Positions 27,410 through 35,467 of a stretch of DNA of 42,168 nt are shown piece by piece. Numbering within the stretch: position 1 is the stretch's first letter; every line of letters starts with the position of its first letter. The stretch is from a virus. The position numbers and the translations under genes are program-made. The stretch spans positions 1-42,168 of the IMG/VR virus record IMGVR_UViG_3300029527_000003; one strand, 5' to 3'. The notes beneath the pieces are model-generated. The model saw only the letters and a program-made list of their open reading frames with translations. It made no database searches and was not told the DNA's origin.

Positions 27410-27486
27410 TGGTGCCGCCTGTGGGGCTTGAACCCACGGCCCCCGGATTACAAATTCGGTGCTCTGCCAACCTGAGCTAAAGCGGC
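27410..27486 (-). tRNA. tRNA-Thr (anticodon UGU), CCA encoded
   Basis: GCCGCTT TA GCTC AGGTTGGCA GAGC A CCGAA TTTGTAA TCCGG GGGCC GTGGG TTCAAGC CCCAC AGGCGGC A CCA. There is one A:C mismatch in the anticodon stem. Confidence 0.8.
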
Positions 27487-29490: not shown

Positions 29491-29756
29491 GGCTCTTCCC
29501 CTTCTTCCTCCTGCTCTGCCCAACGTCTTTGGATCAGCTCTCCGTTGGAACAAACCGAATCCAGTACAGCGTCAGCCTGCATATGAGCAGAAACAAGAGC
29601 TTTATCGGACATTTCCATGTGATAATAACCGGTCATGACCTCACCTTTGGCAGTAATGCCTACTACTGCAAGTTTTTTGACCTTCTCTTCTTCAATCAGC
29701 TTGAGCGCATCCATAAGCCACGGCGCATAATCGGCATCTGACATTAAGACATTCAT
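29487..29756 (-). CDS. Hypothetical acidic protein (89 aa)
   Basis: RBS GGAAGGA. The ATG overlaps the upstream stop (ATGA). Confidence 0.5.
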   Translation of the reverse strand: MNVLMSDADYAPWLMDALKLIEEEKVKKLAVVGITAKGEVMTGYYHMEMSDKALVSAHMQADAVLDSVCSNGELIQRRWAEQEEEGEEP

Positions 29757-29938
29757 TTTCTAAATCCTTCCATTGTCCTAATAAGGCGTTTGTGCGCTTC
29801 ATGCGGCTTTGCGCCATTTCCGTAGGAAGGCCGCGCGTGTTTAGGCTTAATGTAACCACACGGGGGCTTAAAATCACGGCAAAAGTTCAAGAAAAAGTCA
29901 TCGTTGATTACGACAATCCCAAACTTCTTATTTTTCAT
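29753..29938 (-). CDS. Small basic protein (61 aa)
   Basis: RBS AAAGGAGAG lies 8 nt upstream of the ATG. Confidence 0.45.
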   Translation of the reverse strand: MKNKKFGIVVINDDFFLNFCRDFKPPCGYIKPKHARPSYGNGAKPHEAHKRLIRTMEGFRK

Positions 29939-30968
29939 GCTTTGCGCTCTCCTTTCTGCGTTTTCGCTCTTTTGCCCACCACATCTGTTCGGCTTCTGTG
30001 CCGCCTTTGGCTTTGTACCACTCGGTATAGGTCAGGTCAGATGTGACAGCTTTTGTAACGTTATCCCGCCGGGCTGCGGTCTGTCTCGGGTACTTGACCA
30101 ACGCGCTGGTTAATTTGCACCGGCAGTGATAGACCATCTCCGGGGCGGCGTTGGGGTCTCCCGGGTACATGATCTCGTAGCCCTGCACCTTAAACGGCTC
30201 GTCAAGGTCTGCGGTCTCCTGATCCAGCAGGCGGTGCATCTCACGGGTGCGGTAGTCGTGGGTGGAGTTCCAGCGCTTTTTGACCTCGATGCCCAAAGCC
30301 TGGGCGTTGTGCATCTGCTGCAATGCCCCGGCGTTCTGAGCGCCTGTGAGTGCCGTGATGGCGTTATTCATGGCCCAGTGAATCTCCGTGTCTGCCATGC
30401 CGTTTACGGCCTGCACGGCGATGTCGTGGACACTCTTGCCCTGCACGATGCCCTGCATGACATAGCGGTTGAACACCCGGGCGTCATAGGTGCGGTTGCT
30501 CTCGCTCTTGATGCGCTTGTTTGGAACCAGCTTGGGGTTTTCTTTGAGCAGCAGCTTGACTGCCTCGGTGTTGTACAGGGTCAGTCCAAACGTCACGCCT
30601 GCGGCCTGTTCCAGCTCGTAAAAGGCCCAGTTTGCACCAAAGGAAAAGATGTTGTATTGCTCGTCCCGGGCCAGCTTGTAGGCCGTCTGCTGGGCTGTGG
30701 TGCAGGTCTGTGTGATGCCGTCCAGCTTGGCGTGCATCAAATCGGACTGAAAGACCTGATTTTGCAGCCAGATGCGGTAGTCGTCCTCAGTAATCTCGCC
30801 TGCGTCCAGCTGCGCCCGCTTGCGCTCGTCCAAAGCTCGGTACTTTTCCAGAAAATCGGTGAGCTGCTTTTGCATCTCCCGGCGGGCAGTTCCGTACACC
30901 CGGAGGATACGGCGGCGCAAGCGGTTCAGCTGGCGGGTAGAGATGCGGTCACGGTCGGTCTGTTTCAT
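29928..30968 (-). CDS. Head morphogenesis protein (SPP1 gp7 / Mu F family)
   Basis: Position after the portal. The C-terminal signature reads WNSTHDYRTREMHRLLDQETADLDEPF...YPGDPNAAPEMVYHCRCKL. Confidence 0.8.
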   Translation of the reverse strand: MKQTDRDRISTRQLNRLRRRILRVYGTARREMQKQLTDFLEKYRALDERKRAQLDAGEITEDDYRIWLQNQVFQSDLMHAKLDGITQTCTTAQQTAYKLARDEQYNIFSFGANWAFYELEQAAGVTFGLTLYNTEAVKLLLKENPKLVPNKRIKSESNRTYDARVFNRYVMQGIVQGKSVHDIAVQAVNGMADTEIHWAMNNAITALTGAQNAGALQQMHNAQALGIEVKKRWNSTHDYRTREMHRLLDQETADLDEPFKVQGYEIMYPGDPNAAPEMVYHCRCKLTSALVKYPRQTAARRDNVTKAVTSDLTYTEWYKAKGGTEAEQMWWAKERKRRKESAKHEK

Positions 30969-32536: not shown

Positions 32537-33780
32537 TCCCTCAGTTTCACAAGGCGCTTCGTGCGCACAAAATATCGGATGGCGTCCATACAGTGGTCGT
32601 TGACCTTCAGCACGGTGTCGTCTTTATCTGGATCCCAAGCGTATACGCCGAACTCTTCCAGCGTGTGCTTGCAGTCTTTGTATATCTTCAGCCGCCCGGT
32701 CTGCAGCATGGTCTGCACGTCCAGAATGCCGCTCAGAACGTCGTTGTTTGCAGGAGTCTGGGTAAAGCCGTTCTTGCGCAGCTCTGTAATCAGGGGCAGG
32801 GCAGAGGGGTCAACGATGACCCGCTCCGGTTTCAGTCCATCCAGCCACGCTTTGAGATCTGTGACGTACTCGCCCACGGTCTTTTGCCGCTTCTGCTCTC
32901 GACCACTGTAGTAATACTCCCGGGTGACGATCCAGCGGTCTACATCTGCCTGTTTTTGGAGCAGCAGGAACACCGTTGCGTTCTGAGTACCGAAGTCACA
33001 CGCCACATAGGCGCTCTTCGGGGACAGCTCCGGCAACTTGTCGATGATATGTTTTTGTCGGTCGAACATATCGTAGACAAGGCCCTCAGCCACCGTCCAC
33101 AGGCCCAGAATGTAGCGCTGATAGAAAACGCCGCTGTACTGTCTGCGGTAGCGCTCTTTGATGTCCTCGGCAAGTGACAGGTTATCGTCCATCGTGAAAT
33201 GGAGATACATCATCTTGCGGGAACGGCACTTGCGCACCCACTCCAGATAAAACCAGTGCTGTGGGCTGCCCGGGTTGCAGTTGAACCAGAACTTTGACCC
33301 GGTGACAGAGCAGCGGGCGGTGGCCTGATTGACGAAGCTCTGCGGCATCAAAGCCACCTCGTCAAAAAACGCACCGGCCAGGGTGATGCCCTGGATCAGG
33401 TCCTGGCTGCTCTCGTCCTTGCCGCCGAAAAAGTAAAATTCGTTAGATTTGCCGCCCTTGCTGACGGTCATGCAGTTTTCGGCCCGGTGCTCCTTGACGT
33501 TGTAACCACGGGCCGCAAGCTGCTGCTTGAGCGTTCCCAGCACGTTGCGCCGGAAGCTGGCGATGGTCTTTCCGCACATGGCAAACTGCTGCCCGCTGTA
33601 GCAGGTCATGGCCCACTGGACAAAAGAAAAGCTCATGGCAAAGGTCTTGCCCGAACGGATGGCGCCATCGGCAATGATGCCGTTGTAGCCGCTGTATGCG
33701 CTCTGCGGCGTCCACCAGCTCAGGACCTGCTTTTGCCGCTGGCTGAGGGCTTTCCAGCGAAAGCCGTTACTTTTCCGCAT
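32533..33780 (-). CDS. terL: Terminase large subunit
   Basis: Walker A-like motif GAIRSGKTF. ATG at 33780 follows GGAAGAGGA within the terS 3' end. Size and position are typical. Confidence 0.85.
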   Translation of the reverse strand: MRKSNGFRWKALSQRQKQVLSWWTPQSAYSGYNGIIADGAIRSGKTFAMSFSFVQWAMTCYSGQQFAMCGKTIASFRRNVLGTLKQQLAARGYNVKEHRAENCMTVSKGGKSNEFYFFGGKDESSQDLIQGITLAGAFFDEVALMPQSFVNQATARCSVTGSKFWFNCNPGSPQHWFYLEWVRKCRSRKMMYLHFTMDDNLSLAEDIKERYRRQYSGVFYQRYILGLWTVAEGLVYDMFDRQKHIIDKLPELSPKSAYVACDFGTQNATVFLLLQKQADVDRWIVTREYYYSGREQKRQKTVGEYVTDLKAWLDGLKPERVIVDPSALPLITELRKNGFTQTPANNDVLSGILDVQTMLQTGRLKIYKDCKHTLEEFGVYAWDPDKDDTVLKVNDHCMDAIRYFVRTKRLVKLRD

Positions 33781-34234
33781 TTTCGTCCTCTTCCTTTGGC
33801 AGTATCTCCACGTCATCCGGCGGGCTGAAGTCAGCGGCGGCGCTCAGTGCCTCCACAAGCCCATCGTCCGGGACTTCTATGCTGCTTTGATCTCCCAGCA
33901 TGGCAAACTTGTCCACGATGGTGCCGAACGCCGTTGACAGCTGCGGCAGTGTTGCTTCCGCAATCTTGTCCGGGTCCGCCATCGCTTTCAGATACAGCCC
34001 GAGAAGCTCTTGTGCTTCCCCTTGCTTACTCTCCATGTAAGAAAGCATGTCCTTCGAGTTTTCCCGCTTTTTTTGTGCGCACAAGCGCGCACTCTCCGGG
34101 TCTTCCTTTACGACTTTCTTGACGGTCGCGTCCGAAACATCGTTCAGCTTTGCGGCTGCGCGGTAGCTTTGGAGCTGCACATAGTCCGCAACGATCTTCT
34201 TTTTTTGCTTATCTGTCAGCCGCCGTGCGCCCAC
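33767..34234 (-). CDS. terS: Terminase small subunit candidate
   Basis: GTG at 34234 follows GAGAGG. HTH-like segment KKIVADYVQLQSYRAAAKLNDVSDATVKKVV. The longer track ORF would overlap the tRNA-Trp. Confidence 0.6.
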   Translation of the reverse strand: MGARRLTDKQKKKIVADYVQLQSYRAAAKLNDVSDATVKKVVKEDPESARLCAQKKRENSKDMLSYMESKQGEAQELLGLYLKAMADPDKIAEATLPQLSTAFGTIVDKFAMLGDQSSIEVPDDGLVEALSAAADFSPPDDVEILPKEEDENAEK

Positions 34235-34403
34235 CGCCACCACCTCTCTAAACTCAGACAAAAGAAAAACCGCCCGGAAAATCCGAACGGTCAGAATATC
34301 AAAATAAGAGGCCTTGCTTGTCGGGTTCAAAGCCTCTGCGTCCAGAACTTTCGCGGCCGGATGCCCCGCTATTGCACTCCCCGCTCTCGTCAGATCATGC
34401 AAG

Positions 34404-34476
34404 CACTCCCGGCAGGACTCGAACCTGCAACATGCGGTTTTGGAGACCGCCGCTCTACCACTTGAGCTACCGGAGT
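34404..34476 (-). tRNA. tRNA-Trp (anticodon CCA), no encoded CCA end
   Basis: ACTCCGG TA GCTC AAGTGGTA GAGC G GCGGT CTCCAAA ACCGC ATGTT GCAGG TTCGAGT CCTGC CGGGAGT G. There is one G:G mismatch at acceptor pair 6:67. Confidence 0.75.
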
Positions 34477-34482
34477 ATAAAA

Positions 34483-34553
34483 CACCGCCCTTGGACTCGA
34501 ACCAGCCAGCAATATCTCAGCTGACACGCGCTCCGTACTGCGCTCAGGCAGCC
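34483..34553 (-). ncRNA. Degenerate tRNA-like element (possible tRNA pseudogene or non-canonical tRNA)
   Basis: It has a D-arm GCGC-AGTACGGA-GCGC and a T-loop GGTTCGAGTCC. However, the acceptor and T stems do not close, and the anticodon-like stem TCAGC/GCTGG bounds a 9-nt loop TGAGATATT. Confidence 0.35.
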
Positions 34554-34560
34554 ATATAAA

Positions 34561-34587
34561 ACAGCCCTGGCGGAGAACCAGGGCTGT
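34561..34587 (-). terminator. Perfect 10-bp hairpin followed by a U-run on the minus strand
   Basis: ACAGCCCTGG-cggagaa-CCAGGGCTGT. On the minus strand it is followed by TTTTATAT. Confidence 0.55.
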
Positions 34588-34706
34588 TGTTTGACGCACA
34601 TCCCGTCGGGAAGTCTACCCACACCCTCGGGGATTCAAAGCTTTCTCTCGTGGCACGGGAGGTTAAGCGTGCAGCTTTGTGGGGGATGAGTCCATGCGCC
34701 ATACGG

Positions 34707-34775
34707 TGCGAGGTTACGGAGTCGAACCGTTCCACAAAACTGCCAGCCCCGTTATGTGGCTTCCCAAACCTCGCA
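34707..34775 (-). ncRNA. tRNA-like mimic: 9-bp acceptor-like helix plus T-arm, no D-arm
   Basis: TGCGAGGTT...AACCTCGCA (9 bp) encloses a hairpin CCACA-T-AAC/GTT-T-TGTGG and a T-arm ACGG-TTCGACT-CCGT. It is followed by CCG rather than CCA. Confidence 0.35.
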
Positions 34776-34945
34776 TAGAAGCAGCCCGCAAAACGGTGAA
34801 GGAGAACAGGAAAGCATGAAAACCTGTCACAAGGAAGGACCGTTCTGGAGGCTGCGTGGCAAGCGGCTACCGCTTAGCGCTGAACCGCTTATTAGAATTT
34901 TACATCCAAGCTTGCAGACTTGAAAAGAGCTGACCCCTTCCAAAA

Positions 34946-35467
34946 TCACGCTGTGTTTTCTTGTGCATGTTGTACACTTTGCACGTCAGAAAACTCGTCC
35001 CATATCTCGGCCAGGGCCATACATCCGCGTTTGATTCGCCGGTAGACCACTTCTGCCCCGCACACGCCGACTTCTTTTGCGATTTCTTTGTGAGACCTGC
35101 CCATGATATAGTGCTCGCAAATCGCTTCGGCGCATTCCGGCTCGGCCATCAGGCAGTATGCCCGCCGGGTGGCCTCGACACGCAGATTGCACAGGTCCGT
35201 CTCCATCCTCTGAAGTTGTCGGCGCTCGTTGTCCAGCTGCTCTACAGCAAAGCCCACCTTGTCCCCATTGCCACCACCTGCAGGCATCCCGCTCAGGTTC
35301 TGGGTGCATTTTTCGGCCACGTCCCGGATGCGCTGTATTTTTTGCTTCTGGGCTTCGATAGCCGCCGCAAGGTCCCGGCACTGCTGAAACCACGCCTTGA
35401 CGGTGCGGTAATCCACGCCGCTGTCAGGCTTTGGTGTGTCGGTGTCAGGTGTCCATGTGCGGGTCAT
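34946..35467 (-). CDS. Late-gene transcriptional activator candidate (sigma region-4-like; RinA/ArpU/DUF1492-type)
   Basis: Coiled-coil N-half. The C-terminus reads ICEHYIMGRSHKEIAKEVGVCGAEVVYRRIKRGCMALAEI. It is the last early gene before the packaging genes. Confidence 0.6.
   Translation of the reverse strand: MTRTWTPDTDTPKPDSGVDYRTVKAWFQQCRDLAAAIEAQKQKIQRIRDVAEKCTQNLSGMPAGGGNGDKVGFAVEQLDNERRQLQRMETDLCNLRVEATRRAYCLMAEPECAEAICEHYIMGRSHKEIAKEVGVCGAEVVYRRIKRGCMALAEIWDEFSDVQSVQHAQENTA

Follow-up and report, generated by a model that had tools for sequence, protein, structure and literature searches.

IMG/VR virus record IMGVR_UViG_3300029527_000003 is a complete phage record of 42,168 bp with direct terminal repeats at its ends; this whole stretch is called the window below. 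On its minus strand, between the gene of a putative sigma-like late regulator and a terS candidate, lies a coding-free stretch of about 700 nt (34945 to ~34240), which carries a conserved array of two tRNA-like elements, a tRNA-Trp gene, further helical domains (P1, P2 and M3) and three terminator-like hairpins (T1, T1.5 and T2). Comparison with related phages revealed that tRNA-like element 1 is a swappable cassette, with at least six structural classes found in one and the same slot. We tentatively favour the reading, at a probability of roughly 0.45, that the region is a conserved phage 'RNA operon' which doubles as the leader of the late genes, and in which the tRNA-shaped units are handles for processing enzymes.

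Conservation of the array in related phages

Relatives were collected by three IMG/VR scans, with the regulator protein, with an element-1 3′ pattern and with an element-2 pattern, which gave about 195 array loci, 166 of them non-identical. The set fished with the regulator protein is free of RNA-pattern bias and already shows the main results. The layout in the relatives begins with a −10 sequence TAAAAT and, 7 nt on, AAGCG of P1; then follow the P2 stem, GGGCUGCUUCUA, tRNA-like element 1, the M3 domain ending in GGAUGUGCGYCAAC, T1, tRNA-like element 2, tRNA-Trp, a hairpin domain, T1.5, T2 and the first late gene, with optional extra tRNAs between T1.5 and T2. The regulator gene is located directly upstream of the array in all loci. 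The array is kept where the regulator is 20-39% identical (39 loci) or 50-69% identical (38 loci), and also in 37 loci without a detectable terS homologue within ~2.2 kb downstream; in two loci that were read (L110 and L177) a ParB-like gene, instead of terS, comes first among the late genes behind the array.

It is because the relatives keep the array that we place it beyond chance, and folding energy does not carry the case. Element 1 alone folds at a z score of only −1.7 and element 2 alone at −0.4 (range for the tRNA-like units and M3, −0.4 to −1.7); unlike P2, T1, T1.5 and T2 (z −3.1 to −6.1), the tRNA-like units and M3 do not fold far better than shuffled sequences, and the case for them rests on the relatives. 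Consensus folds were obtained with RNAalifold for M3, double changes were counted for each predicted pair, and compensatory changes were found in P2, element 1 and M3. An initial annotation of the region had offered a larger structured regulatory RNA as one of its options, and this is supported by the conserved P1 and P2 before element 1 and by a closed multi-helix domain after it. All five features listed in that annotation (the repeats of P1, element 1, T1, element 2 and the tRNA-Trp) are present on the minus strand where it had placed them, and its interpretation is, overall, partly supported.

tRNA-like element 1 as an exchangeable cassette

In the window, element 1 runs from U-1 (34775) and G1 (34774) to A73 (34707), which is followed by CCG (34706-34704). 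The anatomy is as initially annotated: a 9-bp acceptor-like helix (8 bp when counted from G1), the T arm ACGG-TTCGACT-CCGT with the T loop UUCGACU, and an interrupted 9-bp hairpin with the 10-nt loop GGGGCUGGCA, the D stem being absent. Between classes the element-1 core is 51-61% identical, inside flanks that are 98-100% identical over 110 nt per side.

Class A, to which the window belongs (47 loci), lacks a D stem, and its 9-bp hairpin carries a 10-nt loop whose last bases are GGCA; in its variant A′ (L350) the layout is that of class A and the entire 9-bp stem is replaced by CCCUGUACU/AGUACAGGG, still perfectly paired. Class B (84 loci) combines a D stem of 3 bp with a 6-bp stem, CCUGUC/GACAGG versus CUUGUC/GACAAG, that carries a 10-nt loop. 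Class C (18 loci) has a variable arm that is long, and its stem of 8-10 bp is capped by a loop reading GGCG or GGCA; this hairpin looks homologous to that of class A. A tRNA-Leu ancestry of class C was considered and dropped, the end GCGA...UCGC-A-CCA being common to phage tRNAs of several identities and uninformative. Class D (8 loci) has a 3- or 4-bp D stem and the arm CCYACCGACCCGGGAGAUGGG, and class E (3 loci) has a normal acceptor and D arm with the anticodon stem unpaired. In another 9 loci the slot is occupied by an odd tRNA with a 65-nt insert.

The upper half of the element is constant. All classes retain U-1, G1 and C74-C75, nearly all retain A73, and the acceptor/T stack measures 12 bp throughout (8 + 4 in class A, 7 + 5 in the others). 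Across 29 distinct minihelices 96.6% of positions are paired, with double changes in 9 of the 12 pairs; the covariation score is 0.56, versus 0.21 for shuffled alignments (0 of 500 reach 0.56) and at most 0.11 for slid partners. The minihelix is intact in nearly all of the ~70 unique element-1 variants, and a chimeric, mispaired cassette was met in a single case (L057). A standard anticodon arm with a 5-bp stem and a 7-nt loop is found in the stable fold of none of the classes. Classes A, B and C each occur with both types of element 2; therefore the modules recombine freely. Variation within class A, by reading, is concentrated in the 5′ part of the loop, at ~6 of 10 loop positions versus ~4 of 62 positions elsewhere.

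Short T-arm elements with the end ...UCGC-A-CCA, uncalled by ARAGORN, were also seen in unrelated IMG/VR phages (L126, L111 with two copies, L113, L118, L123, L193 and L197); the example in L126 is a ~60-nt unit that joins an acceptor and a T arm with a single hairpin. Such mini tRNA-like RNAs may therefore have a wider distribution among phages.

Element 2 and the tRNA genes of the array

Element 2 has a 7-bp acceptor, a 4-bp D stem (GCGC-AGUACGGA-GCGC), a 6-bp stem with the 9-nt loop UGAGAUAUU and a 3-bp T stem. Its discriminator G is followed by a U-rich trailer, UUUUAU, and tRNA-Trp starts 6 nt on. The D arm and the 9-nt loop had been recognised initially; the claim that the acceptor does not close fails, as seven pairs form in the register 34552-34483, and the T stem, which had likewise been said not to close, has 3 bp only. 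Three of the acceptor pairs are G-U in the window and two in most relatives. All seven acceptor positions are paired in 61 of the 65 unique variants, which carry two alternative 'anticodon' arms.

The near-canonical tRNA-Trp(CCA) of the initial annotation was borne out by both ARAGORN and Rfam. It has A1-U72 and G73, which we take to be identity elements of bacterial tRNA-Trp, and an acceptor mismatch G6-G67; this position is G-U in L110 and C-U in L177, with A1-U72 and G73 kept. ARAGORN found a tRNA-Trp in 69 of 72 extracted intergenic regions, the window's included.

Besides tRNA-Trp, 86 of 195 relatives, the window not among them, carry an odd tRNA (e.g. L001:1366-1501; L022:4221-4356) that scores 48-50 bits against the Rfam tRNA model. 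It has A33, a loop that is Lys-like (CAUUUAA, 81 cases) or Asn-like (GAGUUAA, 5 cases) and a 65-nt insert in the variable region, and it is located mostly between tRNA-Trp and T2, at times in the element-1 slot. In L110 a tRNA-Thr(UGU) lies inside the leader array, between T1.5 and T2. The window phage has a second tRNA, also Thr(UGU), at 27410-27486 between head genes, and tRNA genes seem to move between the array and other sites.

Comparison with known RNA families

At default settings ARAGORN reported tRNA-Trp alone in the region, and elements 1 and 2 appeared only at lowered thresholds. At 90% element 1 was drawn as 'tRNA-Ala(GGC)', its 3-bp D stem accompanied by an anticodon stem that contains four G-U pairs, and at 80% element 2 was drawn as 'tRNA-Leu(GAG)', its stem containing two mismatches. 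These relaxed drawings are weaker than the long-hairpin folds, and the A′ variant contradicts that of element 1. No known Rfam family explains the rest of the region, tRNA-Trp being its sole match above threshold. A search of 34100-35100 at E ≤ 10 returned, besides tRNA-Trp, only far-sub-threshold YrlA and terminator-driven small RNA (sRNA) look-alikes, and in this 1-kb search neither element 1 nor element 2 matched the tRNA family (RF00005). The YrlA (RF02553) match, with 17.4 bits versus a gathering threshold of 69 and an E value of 1.3, is an artefact of the element-2 T arm standing beside the tRNA-Trp D arm. ROOL, GOLLD, riboswitches and T-boxes gave no Rfam match in the window at gathering thresholds, in 34100-35100 at E ≤ 10 or in three related loci at E ≤ 1.

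Several tRNA-related assignments were tried and rejected. As canonical tRNAs, both elements fall below the RF00005 threshold (29 bits) and have no 5-bp anticodon stem with a 7-nt loop and U33: the equivalent of the anticodon arm is 9 bp with 10 nt in element 1 and 6 bp with 9 nt in element 2, and the lower arm of the other classes is 6 bp with 10 nt, 10 bp with a tetraloop, or unpaired. The canonical 12-bp acceptor/T stack with a T loop is found in element 1 only, as element 2 has three T-stem pairs. No tmRNA was found by ARAGORN in its tRNA + tmRNA mode or by Rfam, and position 3:70 is G-C. For tRNA-Sec or allo-tRNA, with a 13-bp stack of 8/5 or 9/4, the 9/4 drawing of element 1 needs a U-1:A73 pair, and counted from G1 all classes have 12 bp; moreover, the UCA loop is absent, the window element has no variable arm, and no Rfam tRNA-clan match was reported for elements 1 and 2.

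That the elements are unusual working tRNAs, charged and decoding, for example with expanded loops for recoding or frameshifting, is extremely unlikely in our view. The acceptor end is tRNA-like, with A73 and CC(G/A), a drawing of element 1 with U33 and A37 in a 7-nt loop is possible, and loops of 9-10 nt recall frameshift-suppressor tRNAs. However, none of the classes folds stably with a standard anticodon arm, which makes ordinary decoding unlikely; class C has a 10-bp stem with a tetraloop. Element 1 also has neither a D stem nor G3-U70, so its 'Ala' reading fails; both elements stay below the Rfam tRNA model even at E ≤ 10, and the phage genes read as ordinary table-11 open reading frames (ORFs).

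Decay of former tRNAs, another option of the initial annotation, is also disfavoured. Elements 1 and 2 would in that case be functionless remnants in a tRNA cluster of fast turnover, and some data agree with this: anticodon-loop-like remnants appear in the ARAGORN drawings at 80-90%, CUGGCAG (GGC) in element 1 and CUGAGAU (GAG) in element 2, ordinary tRNAs (Met, Thr) are gained and lost in the region among relatives, and the cassette of L057 is chimeric and mispaired. On the other hand, the array is present in ~190 phages, some of them with flanking proteins of only 20-35% identity, the minihelices are intact in nearly all unique variants of both elements, compensatory changes occur within classes, and the 9-bp stem of A′ was replaced as a whole and is fully re-paired. 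Because of this retention and re-pairing we regard decay as very unlikely.

Proposed processing of the array and its alternatives

In the 'RNA operon' reading, transcription would start at the promoter-like site just 3′ of the sigma-like regulator gene, and the transcript would contain, in order, P1, P2, element 1, M3 with an exposed ACCUCC, T1, element 2, tRNA-Trp, a structured domain, T1.5, T2 and terS. RNase P would cut the 5′ ends of the tRNA-shaped units, and the 3′ ends would be handled by RNase Z or by exonucleases and then by the CCA-adding enzyme. The stable pieces expected are a P1-P2 RNA, element 1 (perhaps joined to M3-T1), element 2 and the mature tRNA-Trp, and the three terminators would limit read-through into the packaging genes. 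We infer these steps, from transcription start and cleavage to product stability, termination and read-through, from the anatomy and conservation described above.

Elements 1 and 2 are in this reading not decoders; they keep features read by tRNA-processing enzymes, namely the T loop, the elbow-forming GG and, in element 1, the 12-bp stack. Measuring along the acceptor/T stack, with the elbow as starting point, is common to RNase P, RNase Z and the CCA-adding enzyme (PMC4919913), and the RCCA motif and residue N-1 affect cleavage by RNase P (PMC12710915). We favour the handle reading because the conserved end positions of element 1 are those that bacterial RNase P reads. Variation and replacement fall in the other half of element 1, to which RNase P is indifferent. 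Element 1 thus has a tRNA-shaped acceptor/T half, no decoding half, and a place within what would be a single longer transcript, judging from the one promoter-like site, which is also the anatomy of t-elements and mascRNA.

A number of points weigh against such a role. A bare handle does not need a lower hairpin, yet a stable one is maintained in every class, with compensatory changes between A and A′ and within class B. Several cassettes are found at similar frequency in near-identical phages (A 47, B 84 and C 18 loci), which would not be predicted from purifying selection on a handle and is rather the pattern of arms-race loci. By analogy with Bacillus RNase Z, cleavage at the 3′ end of element 1 would be inhibited by the C74-C75 that follows A73, and element 2 has a stack of 11 positions only and a G at −1. 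Part of the covariation across classes could be inherited from different ancestral tRNAs and not reflect present selection, and the 23-24 nt of elements 1 and 2 that served as scan patterns are conserved partly by construction.

The main rival to the handle reading is that the tRNA look-alikes are active anti-defence decoys or sponges for tRNA-directed host defence or toxin enzymes (anticodon nucleases, variable-loop nucleases or enzymes modifying the acceptor end), with the lower half setting which factor is bound. This would fit the cassette polymorphism with its sharp boundaries between 98-100% identical flanks, the assortment of the classes independently of the element-2 type, the concentration of class-A variation in the loop and the odd A33 Lys/Asn-like tRNA in 86 of 195 relatives. 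It would also fit the known role of phage tRNAs in countering tRNA-cleaving defences (PMC10264068, PMC11555353, PMC13096335). However, the window elements have no anticodon-like stem-loop that an anticodon nuclease could recognise, and the literature searches yielded no RNA decoy of this kind. We hold the decoy reading to be possible but doubtful.

A more specific form of it appears to us rather unlikely, namely that the element-1 slot is a hot-swappable RNA counter-defence locus, in which a constant handle (U-1, G1-C72, A73-CC, the 12-bp stack and the T loop) presents one of at least six lower halves, each matched to a host enzyme, and in which P1-P2 and M3, exposing CUCC motifs, would be set free together with it as regulatory sRNAs. 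If true, the slot would be an RNA analogue of the hotspots of protein anti-defence genes. The handle, decoy and cis-regulatory readings are not mutually exclusive.

Helical domains and terminator-like hairpins of the leader

No promoter-like site other than that at 34897-34926 was found in 34150-35050. Its −10 sequence, 7 nt ahead of AAGCG, recurs in divergent relatives, some of which read TGgTAAAAT. The sole promoter-like site lies upstream of the array, which makes it plausible, as initially proposed, that the array leads the packaging operon. At the predicted 5′ end, AAGCGG (34890-34885 and 34875-34870) and CCGCTT (34866-34861) are present as first described, when they were thought to form mutually exclusive helices. 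The stretch folds instead as a single irregular 13-bp nested hairpin, P1, and the second AAGCGG is absent in relatives of the L177/L348 type and part of an inner hairpin (CCGC-loop-GCGG) in those of the L094 type, so that a switch between two states is not conserved. The outer AAGCG/CGCTT helix is invariant in 18 divergent sequences; hence covariation speaks neither for nor against it, and P1 could equally be a DNA operator.

P2 encloses a 41-nt pyrimidine-rich loop (34838-34798) with CUCCUU. Its stem has 15 predicted pairs, four of them with double changes, and one pair was seen as GC, AU, CG and UA. In 4 of 195 relatives (L052, L058, L062 and L084) the loop (~42 nt) is exactly inverted between the arms, which moves a string of Shine-Dalgarno sequence and ATG to the sense strand; the window has the same string on the plus strand (GAAGGAG, 11 nt, ATG at 34816). 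A small antisense gene starting from this ATG was rejected, as the relatives read on in three different frames (91, 20 and 5 loci), a scatter that occurs even within one P2-loop type. The P2 loop of the window also has a 12-nt exact complement (AAAGCAUGAAAA) in the start region (29898-29962) of a 61-aa gene (29938..29753, minus strand), with an adjacent match to the ribosome-binding site of that gene too (p 0.03 versus shuffles). A conserved trans target was rejected because such 'targets' differ between phages and only 11 of 185 loci reach 12 nt; some relatives have complements of 13-14 nt, to other genes.

The closing helix of M3, UGGCGCAU (34701-34694) / AUGUGCGUCA (34601-34592), is stacked on AUCCC/GGGAU, and the hairpin GCACG-CUUAACCUCC-CGUGC (34672-34653) exposes the motif ACCUCC (34663-34658). 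In the relatives the closing helix reads UGRCGCAU/AUGUGCGYCA, with A-U, G-U and G-C at one position, and the AUCCY/RGGAU helix changes from C-G to U-A in 6 of 13 sequences. Short and long forms of M3 differ in their inner hairpins; RNAalifold gave 25 pairs with double changes in 4 for the short type, and 35 pairs with double changes in 11 for the long type. ACCUCC is found in 77 and AAUCC in 81 of the 82 unique variants, and in one M3 type ACCUCC reads ACACCUCCUUUCU, which we take to resemble the 3′ tail of 16S rRNA. A pairing of CAUCCC (34688-34683) with GGGAUG was discarded, as it is not conserved and AUCCY/RGGAU, from the GAAUCC motif, covaries instead.

T1, T1.5 and T2 are each predicted to form a G+C-rich hairpin followed by a U-rich run, as expected of intrinsic terminators. 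The 10-bp hairpin of T1 (34587-34562) and the run after it are present as initially annotated; a simple terminator scan missed T1, which is kept in relatives with another stem sequence (e.g. L342). The 7-nt loop of T1 (34571-34577 in the window) occurs in both orientations, TTCTCCG in 22 loci including the window and the reverse complement CGGAGAA in 88, and this points to hairpin-mediated flips at the DNA level. Divergent relatives show, by eye, compensatory differences in the domain after tRNA-Trp (UUGCG/CGCAA; GCAUCUGG/CCAGAUGC versus GCAUCCGG/CCGGAUGC). At the site of T1.5, L110, L177 and L094 have a hairpin of different sequence followed by UUAUAU. T2 ends ~20 nt ahead of the terS ribosome-binding site, and relatives retain it in front of their first late gene, also when this is a ParB-like one; in L177, three direct repeats of TAGCTTGA (extract positions ~1005-1045) stand where the T2 hairpin region normally lies, just ahead of the first late gene.

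With three conserved terminator-like hairpins between the sole promoter-like site and terS, and no room for a promoter after T2, the array might be mainly a cis-regulatory leader, in which P1, P2 and/or M3 allow late read-through of T1, T1.5 and T2, by modification of RNA polymerase or by signal sensing (put-like or riboswitch-like attenuation), and the tRNA-like units are passengers. The helix-closed, multi-branch M3 directly before T1 has the layout of a terminator riboswitch, the P1 sequence is conserved at the predicted 5′ end, and the regulator gene is always directly upstream. However, no alternative antiterminator pairing was found: the GGGCUG/CAGCC shared by P2 and T1 does not covary, and L342 replaces T1 while P2 is unchanged. 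There is no Rfam riboswitch, T-box or other leader match, and the retention of tRNA-like units with intact minihelices would be left unexplained. We consider a mainly cis-regulatory role unlikely.

It is hardly credible that the conserved repeats act as DNA, that is, as a pac site, an operator of the regulator or a recombination site. In favour of it are the invariant P1 arms, an inverted repeat placed at the predicted +1, and the position of the region directly upstream of terS. Some relatives also carry the P2 and T1 loops flipped between the arms, a sign of hairpin or inverted-repeat activity on the DNA. But T loops, acceptor pairing with G-U wobbles and strand-specific U runs are features of RNA, and the array is kept where another gene replaces terS.

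Coding capacity, neighbouring genes and host

The coordinates of the array and its neighbours are given in Table 1. The noncoding region had first been put at 540 nt, which is too short, as the gap extends ~170 nt past tRNA-Trp and holds there the structured domain and two terminator-like hairpins. Its lack of a credible ORF was confirmed: none of the eight ORFs of 51-151 aa overlapping the region has a Pfam match, and gene callers left the gap empty on identical contigs. The lone PHROG match of these ORFs is to phrog_25131, a family of 38 positions aligned over the translation of tRNA-Trp (minus-strand ORF 34390-34599), which suggests that this family was built from spurious ORFs called over tRNA genes.

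Table 1. Features of the late-gene leader and adjacent genes in the window
Feature	Position	Strand	Basis and remarks
Putative sigma-like late regulator gene, 173 aa	34946..35467	-	phrog_36 and phrog_248 matches; directly upstream of array
Promoter-like site TTTTCA, 18 nt, TAAAAT	34897..34926	-	−10 at 34902-34897; predicted start near A34890
P1, predicted 5′-terminal hairpin of two AAGCGG and CCGCTT	34861..34891	-	−15.6 kcal/mol, z −2.4
P2, long stem GCAGCCUCCAGAACGGU / ACCGUUUUGCGGGCUGC	34781..34855	-	−31.2 kcal/mol, z −5.8
tRNA-like element 1 (class A)	34704..34775	-	read from sequence; U-1, G1...C72, A73, CCG
Domain M3	34588..34703	-	RNAalifold on relatives; between element 1 and T1
T1, terminator-like hairpin of 10-12 bp, then UUUUAUAU	34553..34587	-	−21.8 kcal/mol, z −6.1
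tRNA-like element 2	34483..34552	-	cloverleaf is the minimum-energy fold
tRNA-Trp(CCA)	34404..34476	-	ARAGORN; Rfam RF00005, 62.2 bits; no encoded CCA
Post-tRNA domain, hairpins UUGCAU...GUGCAA and GCAUCCGG-CCGCGAAAGUU-CUGGACGC	34338..34403	-	predicted fold
T1.5, terminator-like hairpin AGAGGCUUUG...CAAGGCCUCU, then UAUUUU	34301..34337	-	−13.8 kcal/mol, z −3.1
T2, terminator-like, 11 bp, then UUUUUCUUUU	34258..34292	-	terminator scan; −15.9 kcal/mol, z −4.3
terS candidate	33767..34261	-	gene calls on contigs encoding an identical regulator protein
terL	33816-32533	-	Pfam match Terminase_6N
Portal, SPP1-type	32536-31145	-	Pfam match

The late genes of the window are on the minus strand, in the order regulator, gap, terS candidate, terL and portal. 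The regulator matches phrog_36 ('transcriptional regulator') at an E value of 2.5e-13 and also phrog_248 ('transcriptional activator'). Its matches to NCBIfam models of the sigma-70 region-4 type are weak, every one under the cut-off, and a comparison of the protein with solved structures gave no informative relative. The start codon of terS could be the GTG at 34234, that at 34240 or the TTG at 34261, and the terS candidate itself has no family match in Pfam, PHROG and NCBIfam searches.

Identical copies of the regulator were found on human-gut metagenome contigs only, and two GenBank fragments from human faeces match the array. The leader DNA was not found in the 87 and the 399 Clostridia genomes searched, and a scan of genome contigs for the host with 14-nt patterns gave only chance matches among those listed.

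Relation to described systems and significance

Organelles and eukaryotes are known to use non-decoding tRNA-shaped RNAs as processing signals, and a few model phages have odd stable RNAs of such a shape; the mascRNA of MALAT1 is a tRNA-like processing signal. The closest described analogue is the t-elements of plant mitochondria, tRNA-shaped non-decoding transcript units (PMC1920247). Like the array, t-elements and mascRNA keep the acceptor/T half in non-decoding units inside longer transcripts, where RNase P and RNase Z use it to make transcript ends. They are, however, eukaryotic or organellar, and no example from a phage or bacterial late operon turned up in the literature searches. The array further differs from t-elements and mascRNA in its exchangeable cassettes, its stable, covarying lower hairpins and the interleaving with a real tRNA, terminators and conserved domains.

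Among phages, the tRNA cluster of T4 yields two stable non-tRNA RNAs, species 1 and species 2, and in 933W and other lambdoid Stx phages tRNA genes lie between the late promoter and the late genes. These resemble the array in tRNA genes placed in a late leader after the late regulator and in stable small RNAs co-transcribed and co-processed with phage tRNAs, which the array would also yield; but they belong to other phage groups and hosts, and the T4 RNAs form no polymorphic cassette. The tRNA-like domain of tmRNA has an acceptor, a short GG-containing linker for the D arm, a long helix for the anticodon arm and a T arm, a topology shared by class A of element 1; unlike tmRNA, element 1 has no tag reading frame, 3:70 is G-C and not G-U, and its helix is closed by a 10-nt loop. 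The anti-defence tRNA clusters of phages (PMC10264068, PMC11555353, PMC13096335) are similar to the array in fast turnover and altered loops, the array relatives carrying the A33 Lys/Asn-like tRNA, but their tRNAs decode, replacing cleaved host tRNAs, whereas elements 1 and 2 lack an anticodon arm that could be used and do not pass as tRNAs in the models. YrlA (RF02553; PMC4201824), found in some phages, is also a noncoding RNA with a tRNA-like module (T arm, D arm and acceptor-like stem); its topology differs, as it ends in a Ro-binding stem and the array in an acceptor. No Ro60 gene was noted in the window, most genes of which were not searched for one.

Our literature searches turned up no earlier description of a conserved modular array of such RNAs in the leader of a late operon, here that of a common group of human-gut phages. 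tRNA finders and gene callers leave the region blank or put spurious ORFs there, which is of relevance for phage annotation. The variants found in the element-1 slot of close relatives suggest that the RNAs of the array are working ones and not tRNA debris. The ~700-nt array would provide a compact system, with a natural allelic series, for the use of the host tRNA-processing machinery in making phage small RNAs, and it also bears on the gating of late genes by stacked terminators and on the part that RNA cassettes may play in phage-host conflict.

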